From assembly GCA_965198235.1 (NCBI GenBank), contig OZ240248.1:2944001-3008000 (forward strand): DNA of 64,000 bases. Reading direction: 5' to 3'. A model generated the notes under the pieces. It worked only from the letters and a program-made list of their open reading frames with translations, did not search any database and was not told where the DNA came from. Positions 855 to 50,968 of the stretch are shown piece after piece (the first letter of the stretch is position 1; every line of letters starts with the position of its first letter). The translations under genes were made by a program, and so were the position numbers. Source of the DNA: Candidatus Poribacteria bacterium. Its GTDB lineage: Bacteria > Poribacteria > WGA-4E > WGA-3G.

Positions 855-3293
855 TCAATTGTCCTTTGTGCCACGTCGCAACCGGAACGGATCACTCTTG
901 ACGATCTCTGTAATCAGCACAGAGCTTCTATAACCTCTGGCTTCAAGTTGTGCAACGATCCTGTCAACGATCGATCGGTCATAATATTCCAATCCTCTAC
1001 CTAAAGCATAGATTAACATTTTCTCTGTCAAACAGCGTAGGAATTGCTGTTTTCTGTCCTTGACGACCTGTTTCAGGTCGGCTACGCCGTGCAATACTGT
1101 TCCGTCTGGCAATTCCGCGGTTGTATCAATATCCAATTCGCCATCTTTCCACCGAAAAGCCCCAATCGCGTTGTAGTTTTCGAGTGCGAATCCGATTGGG
1201 TCCATTTTCGCATGACAGTTGGCACATGCGGGGTCTGCTCGGTGTTGCTCAAGCCGTTCACGTAGTGTACTCCCGTGAACCGCCTCACCCTCTTCTTCCA
1301 ATTCCGGGACATCTGGTGGCGGTGGTGGTGGTGGTGTACCGAGTATCTGTTCCAGAACCCAACGCCCCCTTTTGACGGGAGAGGTGCGCGTTGGGTTAGA
1401 AGTCACCGTCAAGACGCTGGCATGGCTAAGAATCCCACCACGCGAGGTACTCTGCAGCTTGACCCGTTGAAACGATCTGCCTTTAATCGCTTCGCCGCCG
1501 GGAACGATGTTCTTTTGTCCTCTCCAGTTTCCCTGTGTATCCATAATGCCGTAGTGATTTGCCAAGGGAGAATTGAGGAAAGTGTAATCGGCATCAATGA
1601 GGTCAAGTACACTCCGGTCTTCACGAAAGATTGATTCAAGAAAGAGTTCCGTCTCCTTTAACATGGCAGCGCGCAGTGCACCAGTGAATGTCGGAAATTG
1701 TTCGAGGTCGGGGGCAGCCGTTGTTAGTCGTTGGATTTGAAGCCATTGGGTTCCGAAATTACGGCCCAATTCGGATGCTTTCGGATCTGCCAACATGCGT
1801 TTAACTTGCGACTCCAGATTGGCAGTGAGTTGCTTCTTCCCAGCGAGTTCAAGGAGTTCGTCATCTGGCATGCTGCTCCACAAGAAGTAGGAGAGCCGAG
1901 AAGCGAGTTGAAACTCATCAATCGGATACGATTCTGAACGCTGTGGACGGTCGTCCAACTCCAACCGAAATAGGAACTTCGGTGAACAAAGAATGACTTT
2001 AATCGCCTCTTGAATGCCCGCTTCCCACGGCGCGCCATCCGCTTGAACTGATGCTACAAACTGTGTGAGTTGTTCCACTTCGTTTTCGGTGGGTGGACGA
2101 CGATAGCCGCGCCGAAGCAAACGCGTTAGCACTTCACGGGTCTGTTCTGCTTGGGAGATATCAGGTATGCACGCCAGAATTTCAAAATGAGAATCGGGTC
2201 TGGTTTCTAATGGTCCCTCTGCCCAGAGCGTGCGAATCTGGAGTTTAGCATGCGGTTCACCTTCTATTGGCTTAAGCATCGCAATACCGACTTTTTCAAT
2301 GTTAGGAATACCGGTCATAAGGAATTCAATTGTCTGTCTTTTTTCGTCATCGCGGGCGGTAATCTCAAAAGCCTTCAAAACCTTGATATTATTGTCTACC
2401 GTAGGATCTATGCCAACTAAGCGTGCGAGTTTCTCCGGTGGGGTCGTCTCCTCCAATTTGTCACCCTGAATGAATAAAGCGACTTCCACGGGTGTTTCGC
2501 TGTCCGTTTCGGCGTAAAGTGTTGCGCGGTAGACGATTTCTGCATCGGGAGATATCTTGAAATATGTCGCTCCCGTTGTAAAGGGACCAGATTTCCATGT
2601 TTCTGTGGCGGTTGGATCGAGCAGGCGGTAACGTTCATCAGGGACATCATCGTGGCGCGGATCAAGACGATTACCATTTTGGTAACGTTTGGAGGGTGGT
2701 GGTGGTGCCAACAAGATAACACGCGTGGCGATTGCCTCCGCGGCTTCAAGGTAACGCTCCATTAGAAGCGGTGACATCGTGAGCACATCACCGATATTAT
2801 CAAATCCGTGTCCGACATCATCTGCAGGAAAATTTTCGGTCGGGTTGAAATCAACTCCGAGTAGGTCTCGGACGGTATTCTTGTATTCGACTTTATTGAG
2901 TCGGCGGACCGTTACTCGTCCAGGGTCTGGCTTAGCCATGCGATCCGCATGTTCAAAGATCGCTTCAATGTGCGCAACAAAAGATTCCGACACTTCCATC
3001 GGCGGTTGATCGCTGTCCGATGGTGGCATCTGACCTGTCGTTAGCATGTCCAGAACCCGTTCCCAGATGTCCCGGTTTCCAATTAACGAGTGATTGTCCG
3101 TGAATGAATCCAAGGAGAGTTCGGCGGCAGGCTGATCACCGGCGTGACAACTAAAACAGTACTGTTCCAAGAACAAAGCACCATTTTGCGAAAAGTCGGA
3201 AGTGTCCTTTTCACCCGGGTTGGCAGTAAGTGCAACGAGCAGTAGCACTAAAATCAGACAAAAACATTGTGAGACATAATTGAGCGAAATCAT
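855..3293 (-). CDS. Planctomycete-type cytochrome c / PSD-domain protein (DUF1587/1595/1592/1588/1585 architecture)
   Basis: Signal peptide; two CxxCH heme motifs (CFSCH, CANCH); RRLNKVEYKNTVRDL, LASRLSYFLWSSMPDDEL, RTSPVKRG and PPPPPPDVP motifs typical of the family. Confidence 0.9.
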   Translation of the reverse strand: MISLNYVSQCFCLILVLLLVALTANPGEKDTSDFSQNGALFLEQYCFSCHAGDQPAAELSLDSFTDNHSLIGNRDIWERVLDMLTTGQMPPSDSDQPPMEVSESFVAHIEAIFEHADRMAKPDPGRVTVRRLNKVEYKNTVRDLLGVDFNPTENFPADDVGHGFDNIGDVLTMSPLLMERYLEAAEAIATRVILLAPPPPSKRYQNGNRLDPRHDDVPDERYRLLDPTATETWKSGPFTTGATYFKISPDAEIVYRATLYAETDSETPVEVALFIQGDKLEETTPPEKLARLVGIDPTVDNNIKVLKAFEITARDDEKRQTIEFLMTGIPNIEKVGIAMLKPIEGEPHAKLQIRTLWAEGPLETRPDSHFEILACIPDISQAEQTREVLTRLLRRGYRRPPTENEVEQLTQFVASVQADGAPWEAGIQEAIKVILCSPKFLFRLELDDRPQRSESYPIDEFQLASRLSYFLWSSMPDDELLELAGKKQLTANLESQVKRMLADPKASELGRNFGTQWLQIQRLTTAAPDLEQFPTFTGALRAAMLKETELFLESIFREDRSVLDLIDADYTFLNSPLANHYGIMDTQGNWRGQKNIVPGGEAIKGRSFQRVKLQSTSRGGILSHASVLTVTSNPTRTSPVKRGRWVLEQILGTPPPPPPPDVPELEEEGEAVHGSTLRERLEQHRADPACANCHAKMDPIGFALENYNAIGAFRWKDGELDIDTTAELPDGTVLHGVADLKQVVKDRKQQFLRCLTEKMLIYALGRGLEYYDRSIVDRIVAQLEARGYRSSVLITEIVKSDPFRLRRGTKDN

Positions 3294-4589
3294 CAGCTTC
3301 TTCAGGCTTTCCTATATTTGAAATGTGAGTGGTAAGGCAATATTTTCTTGCTTTACAATGGGTTGTTTAGATATAGGTTTATATCTAAAGTTAAGGCGTT
3401 TCAGTATTTTGCAGTCCGATACTTTTGCGGAAAGTGTCAGACGTTTGCCGCCTTCCACGGGTTGTAAACTCACCCCGTCTTTTTGGTGACCACATATCAC
3501 AGCAAGACCATGCTTGATATGCTTTACCAGTGTACCTTTGGTATATCCGAGGCATCTCGTGCCGCCATATCGCGGTCTTTTGCCGCCCTTTCTGGGCAGC
3601 TCCCTGTGTAGATTGCGTCTTTGTATAGATATAGGCGATATACAAAATATATCTGCATTATCCACATAAGGATTGCCGCCTACCACATGATATGCCAAGC
3701 ACCAACTATCCACACAATGTGCCTCAAAGACTTCAGCAGTCTTATTAGAGGACTTCTTCAAGCCAAGCGAGTCGCGTATATCTTTCGTTTCATGTCCCTG
3801 AAGTGTGAGCAACTCCCACTTCTTTCGGATTTCGCTATAGAACCATTCCTTGCCCACTTCAAGGGGGCTGAATGACTGGTTCCACTTCTTTTGATGCTTC
3901 TTGGTTCTTGCCTTAATATCTTCCACACATACTTGTGTGATTGGATACAGATTGGACAGCCAATCTAATATGTGCAGTTTCCAGTTCCACCTTCCACGCG
4001 TGCCAGCAGGGATGCGTTGCTTGTTAGTGAGTCTATTCATACGGTTCTTTCTATTGGGACACTTGCGTGAACGCCTGGACCTACGCAACTCTCGCCTTTT
4101 CGCAATCTTCTTGCCCACTTTGTTATGGGCATCGGCTTGAACATTCAGGTAAGTATGTTTCTCAGACTTCACTGTGAAACCTTCCTTTTTACTGCCAGGA
4201 TCCACACCAACCGCAATGTCCTGAGTATCTCTATCTGAAGGTTCCTTGTTAAGCCTTATACAAAATATGCCATTGTTAAAATAAGGTGTTGCTGCGCCAC
4301 GCTGAATAAGTTTCCTGGCACGCGAGGCATGCATTGGCATCAATTGCTGACCATCCTTCGATTTTACAGGTACTAACATAAGTTTACATCTCCTTCTCAG
4401 GGTGTGTGCTTCCCCATCGAGATCGCGGAACCAGAGAGGATATAGACTTGAGGAGCATCCAATACCATCTTGTTGACTGCCACGCCAAGGTCCGCGATAT
4501 TTTACTCTATTCAGATTCTCACGTTGCAGGGTCCCCGCTTGGCTGCGGATATTCTAACAATCTCCAGTCTTTAGACTGGAGTATCTGAA
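3294..4589 (-). mobile_element. IS200/IS605-superfamily OMEGA element (omegaRNA + isrB), non-autonomous (no tnpA in window)
   Basis: Left-end hairpin CTCCAGTC-TAAA-GACTGGAG (4562-4581) preceded by TTCAGATA; isrB ORF; 3' boundary abuts ATGA at 3293; right end degenerate. Confidence 0.7.
3312..4379 (-). CDS. isrB: IsrB RNA-guided nickase (RRXRR/PLMP family, RuvC without HNH)
   Basis: 355 aa; N-terminal PLMP-like QLMP; RuvC-I VGVD60PG; Arg-rich bridge helix RRELRRSRRSR; RuvC-II VE153D; RuvC-III H221CVD224; no HNH or CxxC insertion. Confidence 0.9.
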   Translation of the reverse strand: MLVPVKSKDGQQLMPMHASRARKLIQRGAATPYFNNGIFCIRLNKEPSDRDTQDIAVGVDPGSKKEGFTVKSEKHTYLNVQADAHNKVGKKIAKRRELRRSRRSRKCPNRKNRMNRLTNKQRIPAGTRGRWNWKLHILDWLSNLYPITQVCVEDIKARTKKHQKKWNQSFSPLEVGKEWFYSEIRKKWELLTLQGHETKDIRDSLGLKKSSNKTAEVFEAHCVDSWCLAYHVVGGNPYVDNADIFCISPISIQRRNLHRELPRKGGKRPRYGGTRCLGYTKGTLVKHIKHGLAVICGHQKDGVSLQPVEGGKRLTLSAKVSDCKILKRLNFRYKPISKQPIVKQENIALPLTFQI

Positions 4590-4609
4590 TCGTATGCTTC
4601 CCGAACTAT
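4380..4609 (-). ncRNA. omegaRNA (scaffold ~4589->4380; putative 5' guide ~4609->4590)
   Basis: Non-coding region directly upstream of isrB; TTCAGAT pairs with ATCTGAA downstream; terminal hairpin; GGATGCTCCTCAAGTC...CCTCT...TCGATGGGGA segments resemble IscB/IsrB omegaRNA scaffolds; boundaries inferred. Confidence 0.75.
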
Positions 4610-4676
4610 GGAACTAAGGTTTTGCTTTCTTGTGAAAACGTTTCGTTTGGTTATAAGTTTACGCTAATATGCAACC

Positions 4677-4706
4677 ATTATATCTCAGTATGAAGCCTAA
4701 AGGCAA
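4677..4706 (-). promoter_or_regulatory. Putative sigma70 promoter driving guide-omegaRNA-isrB (originally the DUF1592 gene promoter?)
   Basis: TTGCCT-18 nt-TATAAT on the minus strand. Confidence 0.5.
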
Positions 4707-4881
4707 ATAAAAACCCACTAAATACGGGATTATTTAGTTTTCTGAACAGAATTTGCGCTTTATGGTCAATTCTGCTAAAATAGCGGCGTTAGAAACAGCA
4801 AGATTCCAAGCGACTGTCCACGTGTCCTTCTCACCCAACGCATCTAAATGTGTTGAAAACGCTATAGGAGTATCTCCAGCC

Positions 4882-40117: not shown

Positions 40118-42514
40118 CTACATTCGCAATTCTGCACCCAATTCCCAATTAAGACGTTTAACAACCTCGTCGTGAAGGGCATTGACCGCTTTATCTGTCA
40201 ACGTTTCGGTCGCAGAATGATAGGTGATGGTATAGGCGAGGCTCTTCTTACCTTCCGGAACCTGTTCACCTTCATAGACATCAAACAGACGAACCGAGTC
40301 TACAGAGTCCCCACCCGTCGTATAGATAAGCTCTGTCGGCATATCTGACAGTATCTCCTTATCTACGACTATCGCAAGGTCGCGCGCGACCTTTGGGTAG
40401 ATGGAAATCGGTTCAAAGCGTTTGGCAAATGTAGCAGCATCCGTTAAGCCTTCAAGGTCGAACTCAAAGAGATACGCTTTATACGGTAAATCGTAGTTTT
40501 CGAGCACCTCTGGGTGTACCTCTCCGAAGACACCGATCCGTCTATCACCCAACAACACTTCTGCGTTCCTGCCCGGATGGAAGGTGGGAGCGTCCGTCTT
40601 CTGTAGCGTCCAATCAGCAACGCCGCATACTTCAAGCATCCCCTCTACAAGTCCTTTGATGTCAAAGAAATCTGGATGTCGGTACGGATCACTATAGACC
40701 CCTTCCCCAATCTGCCCAGCAAGGACACCCGTAACGCGTTCCGGCTCTTTCTCCTTGCCATCGTGGACGAATACATTTCCGATTTCAAAGAGCGCAATAG
40801 TGTCTATCTGGTGATTACGGTTATGCTGTGCGTTTTCGAGCAGCCCCGGCGTTAGGGTTGTGCGTAGCACTGACATCTCTGGACTCAACGGGTTACGGAG
40901 TTGCAAGGTGTTACGAAGCGGATCATCTGCATTCAACCGGATCTTATCAAAGCAATTGGGGTCGCAAAAACTATAGTTCACCGCTTCCATCATTCCAGCC
41001 GCGAGGAGAAAATGTTTGATACGTCTGCGGACTTCTGTCTTTGGATTCGGTGTCGGCACAGAAATATCGCCTTTGGGCAATGTGGTCGGAATATTATCAT
41101 AGCCGTAGACTCGCGCGATTTCCTCGATGAGGTCGATTTCGCGGGTAACGTCAGACCTGAACGTCGGCACAGCGACTTGATAGACCTCTCCAGTAGCGTC
41201 CACGTCGAAACCGAGACGGTTTAAAATCTGCGCCATCTCCGCTGCTTCGAGTGTCGTCCCTAATACGAAATTGACGCGATCGGGACGGAGTTGAATTTCG
41301 GTCAATGGCTGTTGTCCCGGATAAACATCAACGATGTCTTCACAGACAGTGCCACCTGCCAATTCGGCTATGAGTTGTGCCGCGCGATCAAGGGCAGCGA
41401 GGACTGCGCCCGGGTCGGCACCACGCTCAAATCTGTAGGAGGCTTCCGTACTGATTCCCAACGCTTTTGCGGTAGCACGAATACTTGATGGATTGAAATA
41501 GGCACTCTCCAGTAGGACATCACAGGTCGTTTCTGTAATTTCCGAATCGTAGCCACCCATAATTCCAGCGAGTGCAACAGGTTTTTCGGCATCCGCGATG
41601 ACGAGCATATCGGGTGTGAGTTCGCGTTCAACTTCATCAAGAGTTGTTATTTGTTCACCGTCCATCGCGCGGCGAACAACAATACGGTTCTCTGTAAGCT
41701 TGTGATAATCAAAGGCATGGAGCGGCTGTCCATATTCCATTAAGACGAAGTTAGTGACATCGACAATGTTGTTAATAGCGCCTATACCAACAGACTCAAG
41801 CTGTTGTCGCAACCATGCTGGCGATTCCGTCACCTTAATGCCTTGAATGACGCGTGCTGCGTAACGCGGGCAAAGATCTGGTGCATCGATCGTAACAGAC
41901 GTTAAGTCTCGGACGTTGATGCCACTTTCCTTCAGGTTAACAGTAGGTAGTTTTAAAAGATTTCCGGTCTCCGCTCGGATTTCGCGAGCAACACCGATCA
42001 GGCTGAGGCAATCGGGACGGTTGGGTGTAATCTCCAGTTCAAACACAACATCGTCTAATCCGAGAGCCTCTGAAAGAGGTGTCCCAAGGGGTATATCCGT
42101 CGGTAATTCCATCAAACCGGCGGCATCGTCAGAAAGTCCTAACTCCTTTTCAGAGCAGAGCATTCCTTGCGAAGTCTCGCCGCGCAGCTTTGCGCGTTTG
42201 ATCGTCAAACCGACAGGTAGTGTTGCACCGATTGTAGCGACAGGCGCGAGCATTCCCTCTCCGACATTCGGGGCACCGCAGACAATCTGAAGCTCCTCTG
42301 TTCCACCGGTATCTACCTGACAGAGAACGAGTTTATCGGCGTTTGGGTGCGGTCGGATCGAGGTAACGCTACCGACAATTACACCTTCGAGTTCGGCTCC
42401 AAGATGCTTGACGGATTCAACCTCAACACCTAACATTGTCAACCGATCAGCGAGTTCGCTTGGAGAAAATTCAAAATCGATATAGGCTTTAAGCCAATTT
42501 AGGGTCACGTTCAT
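40118..42514 (-). CDS. pheT: Phenylalanine--tRNA ligase beta subunit
   Basis: HPNADKL, IVCGAPN, ITPNRPD, RFERG, DLIEEIAR..GY, NPLS, C-terminal FDX domain (GKKSLAY). Confidence 0.97.
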   Translation of the reverse strand: MNVTLNWLKAYIDFEFSPSELADRLTMLGVEVESVKHLGAELEGVIVGSVTSIRPHPNADKLVLCQVDTGGTEELQIVCGAPNVGEGMLAPVATIGATLPVGLTIKRAKLRGETSQGMLCSEKELGLSDDAAGLMELPTDIPLGTPLSEALGLDDVVFELEITPNRPDCLSLIGVAREIRAETGNLLKLPTVNLKESGINVRDLTSVTIDAPDLCPRYAARVIQGIKVTESPAWLRQQLESVGIGAINNIVDVTNFVLMEYGQPLHAFDYHKLTENRIVVRRAMDGEQITTLDEVERELTPDMLVIADAEKPVALAGIMGGYDSEITETTCDVLLESAYFNPSSIRATAKALGISTEASYRFERGADPGAVLAALDRAAQLIAELAGGTVCEDIVDVYPGQQPLTEIQLRPDRVNFVLGTTLEAAEMAQILNRLGFDVDATGEVYQVAVPTFRSDVTREIDLIEEIARVYGYDNIPTTLPKGDISVPTPNPKTEVRRRIKHFLLAAGMMEAVNYSFCDPNCFDKIRLNADDPLRNTLQLRNPLSPEMSVLRTTLTPGLLENAQHNRNHQIDTIALFEIGNVFVHDGKEKEPERVTGVLAGQIGEGVYSDPYRHPDFFDIKGLVEGMLEVCGVADWTLQKTDAPTFHPGRNAEVLLGDRRIGVFGEVHPEVLENYDLPYKAYLFEFDLEGLTDAATFAKRFEPISIYPKVARDLAIVVDKEILSDMPTELIYTTGGDSVDSVRLFDVYEGEQVPEGKKSLAYTITYHSATETLTDKAVNALHDEVVKRLNWELGAELRM

Positions 42515-42568
42515 CAAAGTTTTTCGGTCTGAAAACCCCCGATTTTAATAGGTGGGGGAAAACCGTCC
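42515..42568 (-). mobile_element. Solo IS200/IS605 (IscB/IsrB-type) right-end remnant
   Basis: CGGTTTTCCCCCACCTATTAAAATCGGGGGTTTTCAGACCGAAAAACTTTG|ATGAAC; nested hairpin with the same layout as 49166-49215. Confidence 0.6.
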
Positions 42569-42649
42569 TTTTTTTCTTCATACAAAGTGTATAATAGTTT
42601 TATTACGTCAGCGAGCATACGAGTACGACAATTGTAAAACAGGCACGTT

Positions 42650-43309
42650 TCATTTGGACTTAACTTTCTGAAAGTCGAATTTTCTTAAAGAAAATATGCT
42701 CCACACTTCATCAAGATTATCACTAGCACTAGAGGATCCGCCGTATGATCCGACTCTATAGTTCTCACCGGTCTCAGCACGCAATTTCTGGGCTATCTCA
42801 AAAATATCTTCCACCTGACGCGGATTTTTCGGATCAGTAACACGGCACTTCAAAACATCGGGAGGCTTAGAGTAGAGTTCATCATACTTTAAGTATGGGT
42901 AATCCCTTAGGATAGTTTCAAGAATATTTTCAGAAATTTCGTCCAATTTCTCCACAGAACAGTCTTCGTTACGCGCTGTGTAATCATAATTAGGCAAAAA
43001 ATTTCTCATACTTGGGGCCTTCCGAACAATTTCAATAATCTTACCCGTTGCCTTCTGCAAGGTTTTTTCCAACTTCTCCCGCGGAATGTCCCCTAACTGG
43101 TCATCCCTGAGAGTCGCGATGAAGATCCCTTTGCTCAAATCCATGGGTAAACTTTCTTTCTGCTCAACATTATTGAGAGCATACCGAACCTGCCCGAAAA
43201 AGGTGGGACCATATCCACGCACATCAAGTATTTCTACTTGAAGGAACTGTATGAACCCATAGTCTTGTAATTCATTTAGTTCAATGACACGAACTTCAAA
43301 CATGCTCAT
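42650..43309 (-). CDS. Hypothetical protein
   Basis: 219 aa ORF with GAGGAGG SD; no family recognised. Confidence 0.75.
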   Translation of the reverse strand: MSMFEVRVIELNELQDYGFIQFLQVEILDVRGYGPTFFGQVRYALNNVEQKESLPMDLSKGIFIATLRDDQLGDIPREKLEKTLQKATGKIIEIVRKAPSMRNFLPNYDYTARNEDCSVEKLDEISENILETILRDYPYLKYDELYSKPPDVLKCRVTDPKNPRQVEDIFEIAQKLRAETGENYRVGSYGGSSSASDNLDEVWSIFSLRKFDFQKVKSK

Positions 43310-43345
43310 TATGACTCCTCCTCATTTAATTCGGTGAACTGCACT

Positions 43346-43732
43346 TCAAAACGATTTTTGACACAAGATGGAGATATATGGCGGCGAGTAGGCAACAACA
43401 CCGGCGGCGACGCAGGCATCTTCATAGTCCATAAAGAGATGTGTTTCTATATCAAAATCGCCTTCGTGCTCCTGATAGAGTTGGTTCGTTGTGTCTGAGG
43501 GCCAGAGATTCCGGTTCAGTTCACCTTTGATGTGAAGCCATCCGGCTTTCGTTTTGCCCATATCCCACTCTTTCGGTTCAACGCCTTCTTCATCGGAAGT
43601 CTTCCATTTCCAATTCGGATTCTTCAAGGCGTTTCCGTCAAACGGGTCCCCAAGGGAGTCCGCGGCTTGCCCAGAGATTATACCGTAAAGCATCGTAAAA
43701 CTGACACACAACAGAATAGCTACCGGTTTCAT
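43346..43732 (-). pseudogene. 3'-truncated paralog of the neighbouring concanavalin-like (DUF1349-like) protein
   Basis: RNLWPSDT..LYQ....FDIET...DY.DAC..AG.V.YS matches 43807-44580, then similarity stops and a stop follows 12 codons later; no TW-tail. Confidence 0.7.
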
Positions 43733-43806
43733 ATTTTGTTTCCATAAAAGAACTGGCGGCATTGCAGCCGCCAGCGATTCGTAGAAGTTGCAAATAGCGT
43801 TCGCTA

Positions 43807-44580
43807 CTATTGTTGTCCTTTCAGTTCACCCCATGTGACAGCGAGTCGGCCACGCGGGTCAACCGGAGTTGCCGGACTTGATGCTTCTCGGAAGTAGTCA
43901 AAAGTGACAGTCATCTTACCGCCACCTTCGCCTTCGCAGATACCGACGTAGATGCCGACCTCAAGAGGTTCTTCGAGTTCGTTCGTCACTTTACTCACCG
44001 AGACCCAGTCGCCTTCCGCATTCGGCTTGAACCATGACTCGTATTCGTCGCCATCGCGTTTGACGCGCAGTTCAATCGGAATAACACCTTGATCTGGGTT
44101 GTAATCCGGTTGTGTGCCGACATACGGCGCAGCATCATTTTGACGACGCTGGTACTGAAGGACCGCGTTGTTGTTTTGCGCAGCACCACGCCCCCACAAC
44201 TTCAATGTCACCCATTGGCCATCTCGGTTCTGGTGATCCTTCGTCGTGGCAGAGTACACGACAATGCCAGCGACAGTGCAAGCATCCGCATAATCGACAA
44301 CCATCGACGTTTCGATGTCAAATTGGTCCTGATCTGTGACCTGATAGAAACGTGTAGAGGTGTCATCACCCCATAAATTCTGGTCGAAGCCTGCCTCGGC
44401 AACAAGCAGTCCGTCCTTCAACTCCCAAGGACTCTTATCGCCATCCTTGACCTGCCAAAAGGATTGGAGGTCTTCACCGGTCCCACTGAATTCATCGCTC
44501 ATCAACGTTTGTGCGAAAACGCCGGGGATGAGACATACAGATAGAGTCAGAATTGCAACTATGCAAGTAATCTTTTTCAT
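43807..44580 (-). CDS. Secreted concanavalin-like (DUF1349-like) protein with TW-tail
   Basis: Signal peptide; SDEF, NLW, LRVKRDGD, VGIY, FDYFR; C-terminal PVDPRGRLAVTWGELK. Confidence 0.8.
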   Translation of the reverse strand: MKKITCIVAILTLSVCLIPGVFAQTLMSDEFSGTGEDLQSFWQVKDGDKSPWELKDGLLVAEAGFDQNLWGDDTSTRFYQVTDQDQFDIETSMVVDYADACTVAGIVVYSATTKDHQNRDGQWVTLKLWGRGAAQNNNAVLQYQRRQNDAAPYVGTQPDYNPDQGVIPIELRVKRDGDEYESWFKPNAEGDWVSVSKVTNELEEPLEVGIYVGICEGEGGGKMTVTFDYFREASSPATPVDPRGRLAVTWGELKGQQ

Positions 44581-44717
44581 TAACATACCCTTTCTATTTT
44601 TCGTACAGGACGACATTTTTTGGTATCCAAAGAGATTCTTTTACCCCTCAGATGACTTTGGGTTCGTCCGTACAGATGATTCGTCTGAAATATATTAACA
44701 CATTGATTGGAAAAAAA

Positions 44718-47700
44718 TCAACTTTTTTCACCCTCTCCAATTGAGGATCTTACAATTTCCTTTTCGGTCGGTGTTAACCTATATAAGTCATAGACCAGTT
44801 TATCAATTTGTTTTTCTTCTGTAGGCTGGTTAGCTTTCGGGTTTTCTTGTTTTGCTGCCATAATCTGTTCTACTAGTTCAATAATAGGTTGCTGTTCTTC
44901 TACTGTTGCGGTAGGAATCGGGATCTTGCCGACATAATACTCGTCAAAAGTCATAGTTCTGATAGCAGACGAAAAAATGAATTTATAAGCATACCAGTTT
45001 ATCAGTACTGAATTCAGAATAGCTGAGACAAAAATAGGGGAAAAGTTTTCGTCGGTAAGAACGGTATTTATCACCGTATCTACGCTTAGTATATCACCTG
45101 TTTGATCAACGGTTGCGGTAATTTTGATATGCGGCTTTGGGTTCTGAATATGTGCTATAATCTTTTGTGACATCATCTTTGGCTTTTGTAAAAATTCAAC
45201 TTTTTCATTAGAGGGATCCAAATTTTCGGAGTCTATAAAACCCTTGATACTATCAGTCCCGTAACGGACTATATTATCACCTCCAATTACCGGAATATCA
45301 CCTGACTCACTCAGCAGGCTCTGCCATGGCAAGCCTCGTTTTGTGTCAGAAATATCTCGCATAAACGTTCCAATTTGATTTAACTTTGAGGCGAGTTGAA
45401 TTTCCTCGCGTGAGACATCACATATCCACGCTTGAAACTGCTCTGGATAAGAATGGGAAATGTGTGTTTTCCTAATCCACATCTCATTGATAAATTTATG
45501 TGCCGTATAAAAATTTCCCGCATAACATGAGTCATGGACAAAAATCGCTTGCTCAAGATTGACTTTGGCATCTTTGAAAGCCTCTCCTACGTCGATTAAA
45601 ACCCGAGTTTTATCCAACAGGGCGAACATCAGACTATGCCAGTTTTCAACGAATAGTAATGACTTAGGAACAATAAAGGCAAGTATACCATCCGATTTCA
45701 TCAAACGGTTCTTCGCTATATCTATGAAAAATGCAGCACTTGTCCAGTTTTTCGTTTCTTTCACTATTGTTTTCAGATAATTTTTTTCATTTGGGTCGAG
45801 ATCTGCTCCATAGGGCGGATTACCAACAATCGCGTCAAAACCTGGATTTTCCAGTTTATTTCCTAATTCGTCGCGAAATATTTCAGGGAATTCAATCTCC
45901 CAGTGGAAATAGCGGTAGTGCTCTGCTAGTTCTTGTGCTTTTTGGTATCCTTGTAGATTGGTAGGGATATTTGTCTGATGTGACGACAGGGCATCCAGAA
46001 TAGCATGATAATCGCCGCGTTTAACTGTATTTCCAAAGTGAACACTCAACCAGAGATTCGCAGCTTCCTTGTGCCTGCTCAATGTTTGCTGTGCTTGCTC
46101 TAATTTTCGTTCCATTGTATGGATATCGTTAACAGTTTGACTCTCCATCTTTTCAATAACAAGGTAATGTCCAACCGCTTCCGAAACAGTAAGGGTAAAT
46201 CCGAAATCCATGTTGACCACAATTTGCGGTGTTTCGTTAGCACGGCGTTTCGTCGGTGTCGGTAGATAGGCAAGTTTAGCAATGTCCACTCCAATCAGAG
46301 AATTTCCACAACGGATGTGGTGATCAAGGAATGAAAGCGGTTCGCCTTTCGCTACTGTATGAAGCCAAAGGGATACTTTCGCCAATTCTACCGCCATTGG
46401 ATTACTATCCACGCCATAAATACAGTTTTCAACAACGCGTCTGCGCCAATAGGCAATTTCTGTGTCGTCATCACCAGTCACCATAGATGGTGGAGCATCC
46501 GGATGTGTGGCGAGTTCCAACGCGAGGTGGTCGATAACACCAACGAGAAAATGACCACTTCCCATCGCCGGATCTAGGACTTTGATTCGGAGGATCTCTT
46601 CAAACGTTTTGCGTTTACAGAGCGGATCAAGTGCGTTTTCAACCATTGAACGCACAATTGCATCAGAGGTGTAATAACTTCCACTCGTTTTGCGCTTGTC
46701 TTTTTTTCTTATTAACTGAACTTTTCCAAATACACCTTCCACGGACGGTTCATATTCGAGCAGTCCTTCGTAGATATTGCCCAAATGCTGAATTGCCAAA
46801 TCTTGGTAGGTGATGCGTTCTCGCTCGGTTGTTCTGGTTAGTATATTAATGACGTTGGCAAGAACATCATTGCCGATTTTGCTATCTTCCAGAAAAGCGT
46901 GGCGATCTGGGTTGAACAGACCTCCATTATATTGAGGGATGTGTTCTGCCCATCCTTTATTGATAAGGGTAAACAGGGTCTGGAGACGACTCCAATAATC
47001 CGTTCGTAGATCTGCAACTGCGGAACTGTTGTCTAATTTGCTATGTATTTCAGTCGCAAGTGCTTCCAAGCTGTATTCGGTTTGATATTCAGGATTTTCA
47101 AGTGGTAGCAGCCCACGGCTTTCAGCGTACAGGACAAACAGCAAGCGGTAAAGCAAGATTAAACAATTTTCATGGATCGTTTTTGTATCGGAAGTACTTA
47201 AGTTGTTATCGGGGTAGGCTAAAAAACCGTTAATAGATTCCTCTAACGCCAAATGGATTTTGTCCTCAAGATCATCTGAAACAGAGACGGTATAATGAAC
47301 ACTACCTGTCAACACATCATCCAGAAAAGAGCAATTGGAAGCATCGGGTACGAATGCATCGCTCCGGAAGAAATAGTAAAAATAGCGAAACGCGTCTATA
47401 TCTTCATTAACCAGTATGTTTTCAAGGTTAACCTCGTAAAAACTATCTAATCTATAACTTGTGTCGCGATGATAAAGGCGCCACAATCTTCCGCTCGTGA
47501 GAACTCCCCATGTGAGTCCTGAGGTGCGAATATAGAAATCAATCTGGTAGTTTGGGTTGGTATTAGAAAAGGGGTCTTCCGGCCCCTCTAATTTCTTGTC
47601 AAGGTTTGTGGTCCACCCTTTAGCATCGCCCACAGCAATTGCTGTGTGGAAGAAGATGTTGGTATTAATCTGCGGATGTGCTTGCTCTAATGATTCTCGA

Positions 47701-47978
47701 TCAGCGAAAAAAGCGTAATCTGGCTGCTTTGTGCCTTGTGATGTGCGTAGGACCGGTTGCACTCCAAAAGTGTGTCCAAGAATTTTCAGGACAGGACGGA
47801 TAAATTGTTCTTCTGTCTGTGGTTCATTTAGGCTCTCTGCGAATCCGGCGACGGAAGTGTAGCACCCTTTTATCTGTTCATAAGTTGATTCTAATGTGTT
47901 GGATGTCTGCTCTGTTATTACTTTTTTGAGATGATAATTAGAAAAAAGTGCCTGATTATTGCAAGTAGATTCTGCCAT
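44718..47978 (-). CDS. Type IIG restriction-modification enzyme (Eco57I-like REase-MTase-TRD fusion)
   Basis: QPDY...GDAK nuclease motif, WGVLTSG..WRLY, YNGGLF, GSYYT, DPAMGSG, FHWEIEFP, GNPPY, TaqI_C-like C-terminus; visibly AT-richer than flanks. Confidence 0.92.
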   Translation of the reverse strand: MAESTCNNQALFSNYHLKKVITEQTSNTLESTYEQIKGCYTSVAGFAESLNEPQTEEQFIRPVLKILGHTFGVQPVLRTSQGTKQPDYAFFADRESLEQAHPQINTNIFFHTAIAVGDAKGWTTNLDKKLEGPEDPFSNTNPNYQIDFYIRTSGLTWGVLTSGRLWRLYHRDTSYRLDSFYEVNLENILVNEDIDAFRYFYYFFRSDAFVPDASNCSFLDDVLTGSVHYTVSVSDDLEDKIHLALEESINGFLAYPDNNLSTSDTKTIHENCLILLYRLLFVLYAESRGLLPLENPEYQTEYSLEALATEIHSKLDNSSAVADLRTDYWSRLQTLFTLINKGWAEHIPQYNGGLFNPDRHAFLEDSKIGNDVLANVINILTRTTERERITYQDLAIQHLGNIYEGLLEYEPSVEGVFGKVQLIRKKDKRKTSGSYYTSDAIVRSMVENALDPLCKRKTFEEILRIKVLDPAMGSGHFLVGVIDHLALELATHPDAPPSMVTGDDDTEIAYWRRRVVENCIYGVDSNPMAVELAKVSLWLHTVAKGEPLSFLDHHIRCGNSLIGVDIAKLAYLPTPTKRRANETPQIVVNMDFGFTLTVSEAVGHYLVIEKMESQTVNDIHTMERKLEQAQQTLSRHKEAANLWLSVHFGNTVKRGDYHAILDALSSHQTNIPTNLQGYQKAQELAEHYRYFHWEIEFPEIFRDELGNKLENPGFDAIVGNPPYGADLDPNEKNYLKTIVKETKNWTSAAFFIDIAKNRLMKSDGILAFIVPKSLLFVENWHSLMFALLDKTRVLIDVGEAFKDAKVNLEQAIFVHDSCYAGNFYTAHKFINEMWIRKTHISHSYPEQFQAWICDVSREEIQLASKLNQIGTFMRDISDTKRGLPWQSLLSESGDIPVIGGDNIVRYGTDSIKGFIDSENLDPSNEKVEFLQKPKMMSQKIIAHIQNPKPHIKITATVDQTGDILSVDTVINTVLTDENFSPIFVSAILNSVLINWYAYKFIFSSAIRTMTFDEYYVGKIPIPTATVEEQQPIIELVEQIMAAKQENPKANQPTEEKQIDKLVYDLYRLTPTEKEIVRSSIGEGEKS

Positions 47979-48995: not shown

Positions 48996-49057
48996 GGCAG
49001 TGATAGAGGTGACATCCGTTATCAGAAATTTATGCACTTCAATATTGGAACCCGTCT

Positions 49058-49215
49058 CAAGGTTGGAAAACCAAAGATATACGCGATAGATTAGGGCTAA
49101 AGAAGTCATCTAACAAACTTGCCGAGACTTTTGATGCTCATTGTGTTTAATTTCAATTATAGGAGCGGGCATTCCTTCCACACCTAAAGGATTGAGTTTC
49201 TTGCCCGAAGATTAG
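49058..49215 (+). pseudogene. isrB: Internally deleted isrB relic with IS right end
   Basis: 49058-49147 translates QGWKTKDIRDRLGLKKSSNKLAETFDAHCV, 24/30 identical to IsrB aa 194-223; then jumps to an FNFNYR tail (cf. IsrB LNFRYK) and hairpin CGGGCA...TGCCCG-AAGATTAG|ATGA. Confidence 0.9.
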
Positions 49216-50022
49216 ATGAACAGCCCAAAAACGATAGCCCCACGCTCCGAAGGTAGGAAGTTACTCTCCCTACCGACGCGACAAGCGGAGCAACTCTTTC
49301 AAAGTTACGAGAAGCAACAGCAATTGGATATTCTGAGCGCAATTCGTAACCCGAAGTCTCGAGAGAAACTCTATTACCTTGTATCCGATTGCACCGAGCT
49401 CATCCAGGAAAGTCCTACCGAAGATGTACTCCAAGTCTTGGACACGATGCTCGGCACAGGACTTGCTTCAGTCCTATTGCCGTGTCTCTCAAATGAGCAA
49501 TTTGAGGAACTGCTGGACATTGCTGTCTGGCGCGATGGCAAACTCGATGAAGAGTCATTGGACCTCTGGCTTTTTGAACTTTCTGAATGTGAACGGGACG
49601 ATCTTGGACGGTTTCTCAGGGAACTCGACCTCCGTTTGTTGGCAGCACTTCTCCACGGTCGTGTCACACTTCAGGATGACCATAGTGGGATGCTTCTTGA
49701 AGCTGGGTATTTTGATCCAACTTCACCGGCAATTGATTATGCAGACGAACGCGCTCGGGCGATTTGTAATGCTATTTGGGAAGCAGATGATGAGGTTTTT
49801 AGAACGTTCATCAAGGAACTCTTCGCAATTGATACCGAAGCAGATGTTGAGGCTGAACTCGCCGCTGTTTTCGATGCTGTACAGGCTGATAGAGCTGAAC
49901 GCGTCGCAGCACGTGATAAAGAAGCCGGTATTGATGTCACTGAAGCTGACCTCATAGAGAAGGTTGACTTAGAGTTGCTTACACTTGATGACGATGAGGA
50001 CGACTATGACAAAGGCGAATAG
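49216..50022 (+). CDS. Hypothetical protein resembling the N-terminal half of DUF6178
   Basis: LIQE.P.ED....S.EQF..LLD..VW..G.LD......WL..L pattern (recalled similarity); acidic tail. Confidence 0.65.
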   Translation: MNSPKTIAPRSEGRKLLSLPTRQAEQLFQSYEKQQQLDILSAIRNPKSREKLYYLVSDCTELIQESPTEDVLQVLDTMLGTGLASVLLPCLSNEQFEELLDIAVWRDGKLDEESLDLWLFELSECERDDLGRFLRELDLRLLAALLHGRVTLQDDHSGMLLEAGYFDPTSPAIDYADERARAICNAIWEADDEVFRTFIKELFAIDTEADVEAELAAVFDAVQADRAERVAARDKEAGIDVTEADLIEKVDLELLTLDDDEDDYDKGE

Positions 50023-50968
50023 GTTTTCTCTCGTCGCTGGGGCGCAGCTTGACGGGCGACTCTTCCTCGCACAAGCCTTAGCCCATGGAGACACCTTCGG
50101 TGGAATTCCCCGTGAACAGGCGGATACGCTCTATCAGAGTATAGCCGCTATTGCACACAAGCTCATTACAATGAAGACGGCAGACCTCTCCGATCAATCC
50201 GGGCTACGGACGCAGATTCAGACTGCTTTCACGCTCACCAGTCTTGGGTTAGAGTATGGTAGCAAGGGCGATTTTGACAAAGCGGTTCGACTACTCTGTA
50301 AAAACCGAGTCGTCAAATTTTTCCAAATCGGGAACACGCTGACAGAAAAATTGTTAGACAGAGCGCGCCATCTTTTAGAACACGGTGTGATTCTACCTCC
50401 TGATACGGATGAGGAACGTGTACTCGGTGCTACCTATACTGACCTTGAAACAGAGGGGATCCAGATTTATACGCAAGCGGAACTTGAATTCTTAAAGGCG
50501 TTGCTGACTTACAGAACCACTATTCGGTCACTTCAAATAACTATCAGAGATGCGGATGTCCCAAGAGCTCTTATCCATTTGGCTGAGGTCAATATGATTG
50601 ATCAGCAGTTGGCATGCATCGAGAATCGCTGCCACTACGTAAAAGCCTTGCCACTGGATAATCTGTTCGCACTGGATCCACCACTCAGTATTTTCCCCAA
50701 CCCTATTGAACACCTCACACTCGGATTGATAGTCAATCTTGTACTCTATCGCCATGTTGATTTTCAATTAGATGCCGACACACGGCAGGATTTCTACAAG
50801 CTGGCTTATGTGGACGGTGAGATTCGGCAATCACTCCGGCAACAGTTACTTGATTGGATAGCGCAGTATCTCGAACAAGCGCACCAACCTGAACCTGTGA
50901 AGGCGTATGCTGTCTCTTATTGGGATGATTGTCTCCGAATGGAAGGAAAGAAAATTTCGGCTGAATAG
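50006..50968 (+). CDS. Hypothetical protein resembling the C-terminal half of DUF6178
   Basis: SLGLE....GD...A..LL.......FQ.G pattern; overlaps the upstream stop; GAGGA SD. Confidence 0.65.
   Translation: MTKANRFSLVAGAQLDGRLFLAQALAHGDTFGGIPREQADTLYQSIAAIAHKLITMKTADLSDQSGLRTQIQTAFTLTSLGLEYGSKGDFDKAVRLLCKNRVVKFFQIGNTLTEKLLDRARHLLEHGVILPPDTDEERVLGATYTDLETEGIQIYTQAELEFLKALLTYRTTIRSLQITIRDADVPRALIHLAEVNMIDQQLACIENRCHYVKALPLDNLFALDPPLSIFPNPIEHLTLGLIVNLVLYRHVDFQLDADTRQDFYKLAYVDGEIRQSLRQQLLDWIAQYLEQAHQPEPVKAYAVSYWDDCLRMEGKKISAE

Follow-up and report, generated by a model that had tools for sequence, protein, structure and literature searches.

Why do three genes within 64,000 nucleotides (nt) of the genome of a sponge symbiont, Candidatus Poribacteria, including the phenylalanyl-tRNA synthetase gene pheT, begin at the very base where the end of a transposon appears to stop? 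The stretch analyzed here, referred to as the window, comprises positions 2,944,001 to 3,008,000 of contig OZ240248.1 in assembly GCA_965198235.1 (G000:C1:2944001-3008000, where G000 is this genome). An initial annotation of its sequence described three IS200/605-type ends that each stop on an ATGA serving as a host start codon, and proposed that this target motif steers insertions to translation starts, where the element end replaces the host ribosome-binding site and then persists because the host relies on it. We conclude that the three leaders are very probably the target-adjacent ends of a single non-autonomous, IsrB-bearing IS200/IS605 family that docks at ATGA start codons. All three junctions are present in the window, and relatives without the insert lose similarity at or near the host ATG. 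How far the motif steers insertion, and whether hosts have come to depend on the ends, are claims that survive only in part, as discussed below.

At pheT, the junction ...GGGGGTTTTCAGACCGAAAAACTTTG/ATGAAC (42540-42509, minus strand; the slash marks the insertion point) places a solo target-side end directly 5' of the ATG, and the target site is the start ATGA of the gene itself, at 42514-42511. This solo end consists of a nested two-stem hairpin followed by an A/U-rich tail ending in ...CTTTG; the interval 42511-42568 singled out initially corresponds to positions 2-58 of our end-module profile, with the ATGA counted in. In nhmmer searches of the whole genome, the pheT module scores E=4e-11 with the first profile and E=2e-9 with the iterated profile, and it is compatible with a consensus fold that shows covariation across copies. 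In 16 of 18 same-genus genomes, similarity begins with the A of the ATG (query base 186-187), and the N-terminal sequence MNVTLNWLK is kept in relatives. The module precedes pheT in the other two (G018 and G014), and thus in three of 19 genomes of the genus with this one; both share with this genome the module and about 45 nt beyond it, and a further remnant upstream, common to these two relatives, has its left limit at about ACGTAATAAAAC. At all nine empty relatives' loci that were read, the ATGA is already in place. Comparison of pheT leaders among relatives, which could have refuted the initial proposal, did not do so; the hairpin is absent in 16 of 18, and their leaders are unrelated.

The gene at 49216 repeats this pattern with a more eroded element. 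Its junction reads ...GAGTTTCTTGCCCGAAGATTAG/ATGAAC (also read as ...CCCGAAGATTAG/ATGAAC), and the end module there scores E=7e-11 with the first profile and E=9e-11 with the iterated profile against the whole genome. The internally deleted remnant that carries this module stands in place of 16 nt of native leader, TGATGGAGGAGCTGGC, which includes a GGAGG Shine-Dalgarno sequence. The empty site, ...CGTCTCA TGATGGAGGAGCTGGC/ATGAAC, with its ATGA already there, was found in nine of nine relatives' loci read. Similarity to the gene starts at the ATG in 16 of 18 same-genus genomes and 4 bases before it in one; in one of the 18 the gene has no match. The first ORF (open reading frame) is intact in all nine loci, with 268 amino acids (aa) in eight and 271 aa in one. 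As initially claimed, the host ORFs stay intact and the last ~58 nt of leader derive from the element; at gene 49216 the native Shine-Dalgarno sequence has been lost. The DUF6178 family is spread here over two adjoining ORFs of 268 and 327 aa (49216-50968), which is a natural two-gene layout with no frameshift because the first ORF measures 268-271 aa in the nine relatives. In one relative (locus L013 of genome G006), an unrelated insertion of ~1.4 kb precedes the empty ATGA site by some 40 nt.

The third junction, ...GAAAGCCTGAAGAAGCTG/ATGATT (3311-3288, minus strand), precedes a DUF1592-family gene, and GAAAGCCTGAAGAAGCTG comes directly after the stop codon of a 355-aa ORF with the Pfam domain RRXRR. 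In this copy the end hairpin (about 38 nt) has been deleted and the 18-nt tail alone is left. The element is found at this site in none of 18 relatives; similarity to the gene starts 0-9 bases before the ATG in 15 of them and further inside the gene in three. Filled and empty sites differ by a clean insertion at ...GCATAC(GA or TC)/ATGA without target duplication, and ATGA stands at the empty site in eight of nine relatives' loci read. The ATGA is thus the host target and not a part of the element. Judged from their position directly 5' of real host start codons, the element ends would form part of the translation-initiation regions of the genes that follow.

Several features identify the element family. 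The 355-aa protein matches the IsrB of Desulfovirgula thermocuniculi (PDB 8DMB) over residues 3-314 at E=6.7e-37, and IscB chains in the PDB only at 1e-7 and at the N-terminus; RRXRR is its sole Pfam domain at E<=0.01, and HNH is absent at that cut-off. An N-terminal PLMP/RRXRR region, a split RuvC domain, a length of ~350 aa and the lack of HNH make it a predicted IsrB by sequence. The genome contains eight RRXRR matches in seven loci, plus fragments, and six Y1 TnpA genes (PF01797 over cut-off). Just upstream of two of the six tnpA genes, on the opposite strand, sits an end module of a subfamily with ATAA junctions; because ATAA-type modules are so placed, the end module represents the target-adjacent left end (LE), with isrB antisense to tnpA. 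The name 'right end' used initially must accordingly be changed, as the module is a left end by the TnpA convention and a 3' terminus only in the IscB-sense convention. This polarity is in line with published accounts, considered below, of the GstIscB motif TTCAT 5' of the LE, the DtIsrB motif NTGA/TTGA and the N/ATGA target of ISC elements.

In copies across the genome, a shared 58-nt module follows the C-terminus RLNF[RN]Y, which is conserved; it reads, in order, AGGAG, stem A, TTTCC, stem B, loop CTAAAG, stem B', TTTCC, stem A' and the tail GAAGATTTTG, with ATGA coming next. Both stems covary across 31 copies, with several pair types per position. The far end, ~210 nt upstream of isrB, carries a similar CTAAAG hairpin (CTCCA..CTAAAG..TGGAG) that aligns in six copies, and a 213-nt region upstream of isrB is kept in six full-length copies and partly in nine miniature copies. 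Subterminal imperfect hairpins at both ends without terminal inverted repeats, a specific 4-5-nt target without target-site duplication, and a Y1 (HUH) TnpA in the genome, whose action on IsrB elements is putative, are traits of the ISC group of IS200/IS605 elements. The initial assignment to this type is thus upheld by profile matches, two-end hairpins with covariation, IsrB, and Y1 TnpA. Covariation between the junction 4-mer and the tail beside the hairpin foot was not evident when judged by eye only.

How often do such ends meet start codons? The iterated nhmmer profile (E<0.01) detects 41 end modules in the genome, with junctions of ATGA in 18, ATGG in four, ATAA in ten and other or truncated sequences in nine. 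We scored a junction as abutting when it coincided with the ATG of a called gene or of an ORF of at least 100 aa. By this measure 11 of 18 ATGA copies abut a gene's ATG; counting a 72-aa ORF raises the number to 12, and adding the IsrB copy of the window gives 13 of 19. Three of four ATGG-type copies also sit on a gene's ATG, as do none of ten ATAA-type copies; the rpsR start lies 2 nt from one junction, and another junction has an ATG 6 nt before it. The downstream ORFs are of recognizable families in 15 of 17 cases tested, including UppS, rpsR (S18), DHDPS, MatE and DegT. The genome has 41,895 ATGA sites; 4,322 of them are non-coding, and in 1,640 (3.9%) the ATG is the first of a gene. Against the 3.9% background, the enrichment at starts has P about 1e-14. 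A profile scan for start-codon enrichment had been set beforehand as the test of the idea, and its outcome, 12-13 of 19 versus 3.9%, favors it. None of the 41 junctions lies inside a gene body, and loss of intragenic insertions is therefore evident.

Docking extends beyond this genome. In 11 genomes of relatives, 40 module copies were considered, chosen from about 75 module hits by assembly quality, not context, and in 18 of them an ORF of at least 100 aa begins at the junction. Across Poribacteria, 80 full-length IsrB loci include 73 with a detected module, of which 30 abut a start, 12 lie 3-30 nt off and 31 do neither. The junction is ATGA in 43 of these 73 elements and in 35 of the 40 relatives' modules. 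The two samples overlap in genomes and include some orthologous insertions, and so are not independent. On cyanobacterial plasmids, the ATGA that follows the IsrB gene opens a co-oriented annotated coding sequence in three of six loci read (Stanieria, Leptolyngbya and Dolichospermum), and the end profile backs the module in two of these (E=1.4e-4 and 0.007); a Calothrix plasmid locus stops at ATGA, where no gene begins. The remaining two plasmid loci, H7 and H8, encode RRXRR proteins that are 28-30% identical, and were set aside as not comparable, as they have another layout and a module match of E=1.7 at best.

The claim that the motif steers insertions to starts must also be measured against what the target alone predicts. 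Starts in this genome most often read ATG+A, with A at +4 in 40% of 1,031 confident ATG starts and AA in 24%. Under a generous null, in which all non-coding and start ATGA sites are equally available, 27.5% of copies would abut a start, or 33% for ATGAA. Thus 27-33% abutting is predicted because of target identity and survivorship, compared with 41-68% observed. Relative to this null, P is 1e-3 to 2e-4 for the 12-13 of 19 in this genome; for the relatives' 18 of 40 it is 0.013 (27.5%) or 0.076 (33%), and for the full-length 30 of 73 it is 0.008 (27.5%) or 0.09 (33%). Enrichment over background is strong, in other words, but much of what looks like steering is already contained in the null.

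Several points weigh against start-codon docking by this family. First, relative to the generous null the excess amounts to no more than about two-fold, and two of the three samples show it weakly. Second, the counts depend on 4,259 gene calls from a crude, purpose-made ORF caller and on a definition of abutment that requires an ORF of at least 100 aa, and the relatives' copies were picked by similarity to one module, with some being orthologous (L155 and L163 have identical flanks). Third, the pheT leader folded alone is not stabler than shuffled sequences (z=-0.37 and +0.38 for RNA or DNA; z=-0.37 for the hairpin); single-sequence folding is uninformative at pheT, however, and the evidence of structure is the covariation across copies. 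Fourth, Rfam searches of the window (gathering score) and of 3200-4800 (E<=1) gave no HEARO hit on the presumed omegaRNA, and at E<=1 the latter region returned only a chance-level match to Yfr10 (E=0.32). Finally, our RNA data are contigs of four sponge metatranscriptome libraries, which record no strand, transcript starts or levels and could include DNA.

The pheT junction region is covered by contigs in four libraries, as junction coverage only, and contigs from X1 and X2 diverge at 42602, within the remnant upstream of the pheT module. At gene 49216, the stretch from the remnant across the ATG (49030-49245) is spanned by contigs from X1 (547 nt, no mismatch), X2 and X4, and X3 and X4 also contain contigs with the uninserted allele at 49059 (TGATGGAGGAGTCGGC and then ATG). 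Uncovered parts of the window, such as 44847-45677, are uninformative in contig-only data of this kind. Inserted and empty forms at gene 49216 co-occur in the sampled communities of the same sponge study.

The residual two-fold excess may come from a longer target, from non-coding sites that do not tolerate insertion, or from better retention in transcribed leaders. A more specific possibility, which we consider plausible without favoring it, is a preference for or retention at certain sites beyond the 4-5-nt target. AT-rich 5' regions that are single-stranded or transcribed may be better targets for TnpA, or a working guide RNA may come only from copies in a transcribed leader, which IsrB would re-install after excision. 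All three samples show the excess of about two-fold over the generous null, and Meers et al., in passages on the orientation of IscB elements, argue that transcribed sites either attract insertions or retain them better. The excess is modest and the null crude, however; an ATGAA target lifts the expectation to 33%, and insertion at some non-coding ATGA sites is surely not tolerated.

Somewhat less likely in our estimation, and a supplement to docking instead of a substitute for it, is exaptation, in which the element end is now needed for host expression as a leader hairpin, a translation start region or a stabilizer. The initial annotation had reasoned in this direction, viewing the ends as decayed leftovers that persist because the host relies on them. 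To sort copies by persistence, we considered 26 in this genome (ATGA and ATGG copies and four with other or truncated junctions). Five are full-length elements, three of which abut a start; nine are two-ended miniatures, with five or six abutting; and 12 are solo target-side ends, with nine abutting, among them those at pheT and rpsR. No solo far end was found, as every one of 15 far-end hits has a module or IsrB downstream. Leftover solo ends thus exist, but many of the supposed leftovers are two-ended miniature elements. The asymmetry of 12 to zero is suggestive, as is sequence conservation at pheT, where the module is 88-90% identical among three species compared with 70-78% at pheT four-fold sites (P = 0.02, 0.003 and 0.0004 for three non-independent pairs) and one stem change is compensated. 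Gene 49216, likewise, has lost its native GGAGG and yet keeps an intact 268-aa ORF.

Against exaptation, solo ends are no more enriched at starts (nine of 12) than copies that are intact or have both ends (8-9 of 14; Fisher p=0.68, on 9/14), and 30 of 73 full-length elements elsewhere abut starts too. Moreover, the conservation is seen at one locus only, the hairpin has been lost in the DUF1592 copy and so is not always needed, and relatives express the same genes without the module. The same asymmetry is also expected if deletions that reach the ATG are lethal. Host constraint is only hinted at by the solo ends and the pheT module.

Two other alternatives are much weaker. It is highly improbable that the hairpin before pheT belongs to a normal host terminator or leader and has only a superficial likeness to an element end: a terminator-like plus-strand pattern does overlap the region, and the single hairpin is not unusually stable, but the profile matches extend across the whole module including its tail, most relatives lack the hairpin and have unrelated leaders, with pheS directly upstream in four of nine read, and no Rfam family matches. 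It is just as improbable that the element supplies the ATG and host ORFs became fused to an element-borne start, for although many copies end in a conserved TTGATGA, the empty sites hold ATGA at the same codon (pheT 9/9, gene 49216 9/9, DUF1592 8/9) and the junction 4-mer differs by subfamily.

How would start-codon docking by IsrB elements work? We propose that a Y1 TnpA encoded elsewhere in the genome, putatively acting in trans, would mobilize elements that carry IsrB and a guide RNA, inserting them immediately 5' of ATGA (ATGG or ATAA in sister subfamilies) without duplication; on the TnpA strand, this target would read as a TTCAT-type transposon-adjacent motif (TAM). By analogy with DtIsrB and GstIscB, the IsrB and IscB discussed below, we infer that the TAM of the nuclease is the same sequence as the transposase target. 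As ATG+A starts are common and intragenic insertions are lost, about half of the surviving copies would come to lie exactly on a start codon and co-oriented with the gene. The docked ORF would remain intact, with the last ~58 nt of its leader now being element end, hairpin plus tail GAAGAUUUUG. Because it is seated on a start codon, a docked copy points the same way as the gene and has the host promoter upstream of it. Lying between that promoter and the ATG, it would be transcribed by the host promoter in the order guide, omegaRNA scaffold, isrB, host gene. Translation of the host gene would then start without a Shine-Dalgarno sequence, as it does for about half of the genes in this genome; a Shine-Dalgarno 4-mer occurs in 52% of the 1,031 confident starts, compared with 11% in a control region.

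The DUF1592 locus shows how this arrangement might look. The predicted guide would be the last ~20 nt of the native 5' untranslated region (UTR) of the DUF1592 gene. Upstream of the element, a promoter-like site that appears by eye to be conserved in relatives would, as a candidate resting on a consensus match only, drive the leader, the omegaRNA, isrB and the DUF1592 gene. For pheT, a scan around the gene found no promoter-like site on the minus strand.

More broadly, an ATGA(A) target or TAM may mimic the commonest start context and thereby provide a safe harbor, forced co-orientation and a host-driven guide, with the end later kept under host selection even at essential genes such as pheT, rpsR and uppS. 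We regard this extended idea as attractive but tentative, with the odds somewhat against it. If it is true, start-codon docking should be general for IS200/605 lineages whose target reads ATG on the cargo-sense strand, the guide would be the end of the host's own 5' UTR, and transcription of the guide RNA would begin outside the element.

The element type and its N/ATGA targeting are already published; start-codon docking appears to be the new part. Insertion of ISC and IS605-superfamily transposons at N/ATGA was described by Kapitonov, Makarova and Koonin in 2016 (PMC4810608), and our elements resemble those in that account in being non-autonomous IscB/IsrB elements with subterminal hairpins that insert precisely 5' of ATGA without duplication, in having related ATAA and ATCA targets, and in sharing ends with TnpB elements and miniatures. 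Its main text covers Cyanobacteria and Proteobacteria and contains no occurrence of 'start codon'; docking, the solo-end asymmetry and a Poribacteria family are added here. For the IscB of Geobacillus stearothermophilus (GstIscB), passages of Meers et al. 2023 (10.1101/2023.03.14.532601) give a TAM of TTCAT 5' of the LE, which is ATGAA on the iscB-sense strand, and describe an omegaRNA bounded by the right end (RE) with its guide outside the element, so that transcription from outside is required. They also report that IscB elements are oriented like the upstream gene (10.1101/2023.03.14.532601). In those passages only the upstream gene is analyzed ('downstream gene' occurs 0 times, and 'start codon' once, in a figure legend on distances upstream of iscB), whereas here the target is the start codon of the downstream gene. 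The Geobacillus system, moreover, is an IscB, in contrast to the present IsrB without HNH, which is known from sequence alone.

For Desulfovirgula thermocuniculi IsrB (DtIsrB), Hirano et al. 2022 (PMC9581776; PDB 8DMB) give a TAM of NTGA/TTGA in the passages considered. The protein in the window shares with DtIsrB its ~350-aa length and lack of HNH, besides the E=6.7e-37 match, but its omegaRNA is not recognized by Rfam HEARO, and its TAM and nicking activity are predicted. A further parallel is with PATE and REP-like IS200/605 derivatives, whose hairpin ends, according to passages of Delihas 2009 (PMC2775950), persist as short non-coding repeats beside host genes. The Borrelia IS605 stem-loops in that account differ in lying downstream of lipoprotein genes and not on start codons (PMC2775950). 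Two-ended miniatures, nine of which are present in this genome, add to the likeness with PATE-like derivatives.

IStrons, in which an IS605-type element is fused to a group I intron, use splicing to restore the host message. They resemble the present case as IS200/605 elements that lie in a transcription unit and spare the host gene, although here the ORF is never interrupted; Rfam found no intron in the window. In open-access full text, we found no paper linking an ATGA target or TAM to start codons.

There are several implications. Docking would explain both the published but unexplained co-orientation of IscB elements and their need for outside transcription. It shows that a mobile element can take over the leader, even of essential genes, in about half of the places where it inserts, and the host survives; the more than 60 transposon-derived 5' leaders are a natural set for studying translation without Shine-Dalgarno sequences. 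For annotation, repeats ending on ATGA would mark true start codons. Finally, synteny breaks that are precise to the start codon, as at pheT, may be scars of these elements. The features discussed are collected in Table 1.

Table 1 Features of the three docked loci, in window coordinates
Feature	Position	Strand	Basis
DUF1592/PSD-family gene	855..3293	-	Pfam, relatives; start ATGA 3293-3290 is the target site
Full-length IsrB element between ...GCATACGA and ATGA	3294..4589	-	Copy alignments, filled versus empty sites
Element 18-nt tail	3294-3311	-	Copy alignments
isrB ORF	3312-4379	-	Pfam RRXRR, PDB 8DMB match
Far end (canonical RE) hairpin and 213-nt conserved omegaRNA-like region	4380-4589	-	Copy alignments
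Predicted omegaRNA guide segment	4590..4609	-	Inferred from element geometry and passages of Meers et al.
Promoter-like site TTGCCT, 18 nt, TATAAT (10/12 consensus matches)	4706-4677	-	Consensus match only
pheT (phenylalanyl-tRNA synthetase beta chain)	40118..42514	-	Pfam B3_4, tRNA_synthFbeta, FDX-ACB, B5, tRNA_bind
Solo target-side end (canonical LE) of IsrB-type IS200/605 element	42515..42572	-	nhmmer, consensus fold
Further remnant upstream of pheT module	42573..42608	-	Alignment of L001-L003; common to two module-bearing relatives
30-nt fragment akin to 5' end of FGE-sulfatase-family gene	42624..42653	-	blastn 33-nt match, 91%
156-nt internally deleted element remnant	49060..49215	+	IsrB ORF fragment 49068-49146, end module 49161-49215
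268-aa gene, DUF6178 N-terminal-like	49216..50022	+	Pfam; start ATGA is the target site

Within a single genus, the upstream synteny of pheT breaks exactly at the ATG (window 42511-42760, loci L001-L010). Four kinds of upstream neighbor occur in the ten loci, this genome included: pheS in four, a second gene in two, a homologue of window gene 42650-43309 in three (one of which lacks the module) and, in G018, a sequence different from the other three types. From this pattern, element copies at ATGA would seem to serve as points of rearrangement, with clean excision possible afterwards. The FGE-sulfatase-family gene homologous to the 30-nt fragment, at C1:754977-755858, also carries a partial end module ahead of its own ATG. 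The ATGA of the fragment (42624-42653) overlaps the stop codon of the upstream gene 42650-43309.

Some minor observations concern the element family and the remainder of the window. In three isrB copies of the ATGA subfamily (G000:C1:4647887-4648912, 1584144-1585169 and 4954387-4955412), isrB terminates at the TAA within the CTAAAG loop, ~33 nt before the host ATG, and the same holds for the Dolichospermum plasmid copy (L178). Four miniature elements of ~230 nt (G000:C1 near 1866636-1866873, 3046389-3046620, 3157918-3157695 and 1012453-1012683) each combine ~84 nt of far end with a target-side module, one of them on the uppS start, and resemble a PATE-like derivative family that may still be mobile. 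The genome also encodes a separate 621-aa IscB with RRXRR and HNH domains (G000:C1:1472438-1474303). A tRNA scan found none. On the minus strand at 44718-47978, the window encodes a 1,086-aa Eco57I/MmeI-like fused restriction-modification methylase (Pfam Eco57I, N6_Mtase and TaqI_C), which is followed by three ORFs without Pfam matches (42650-44616).

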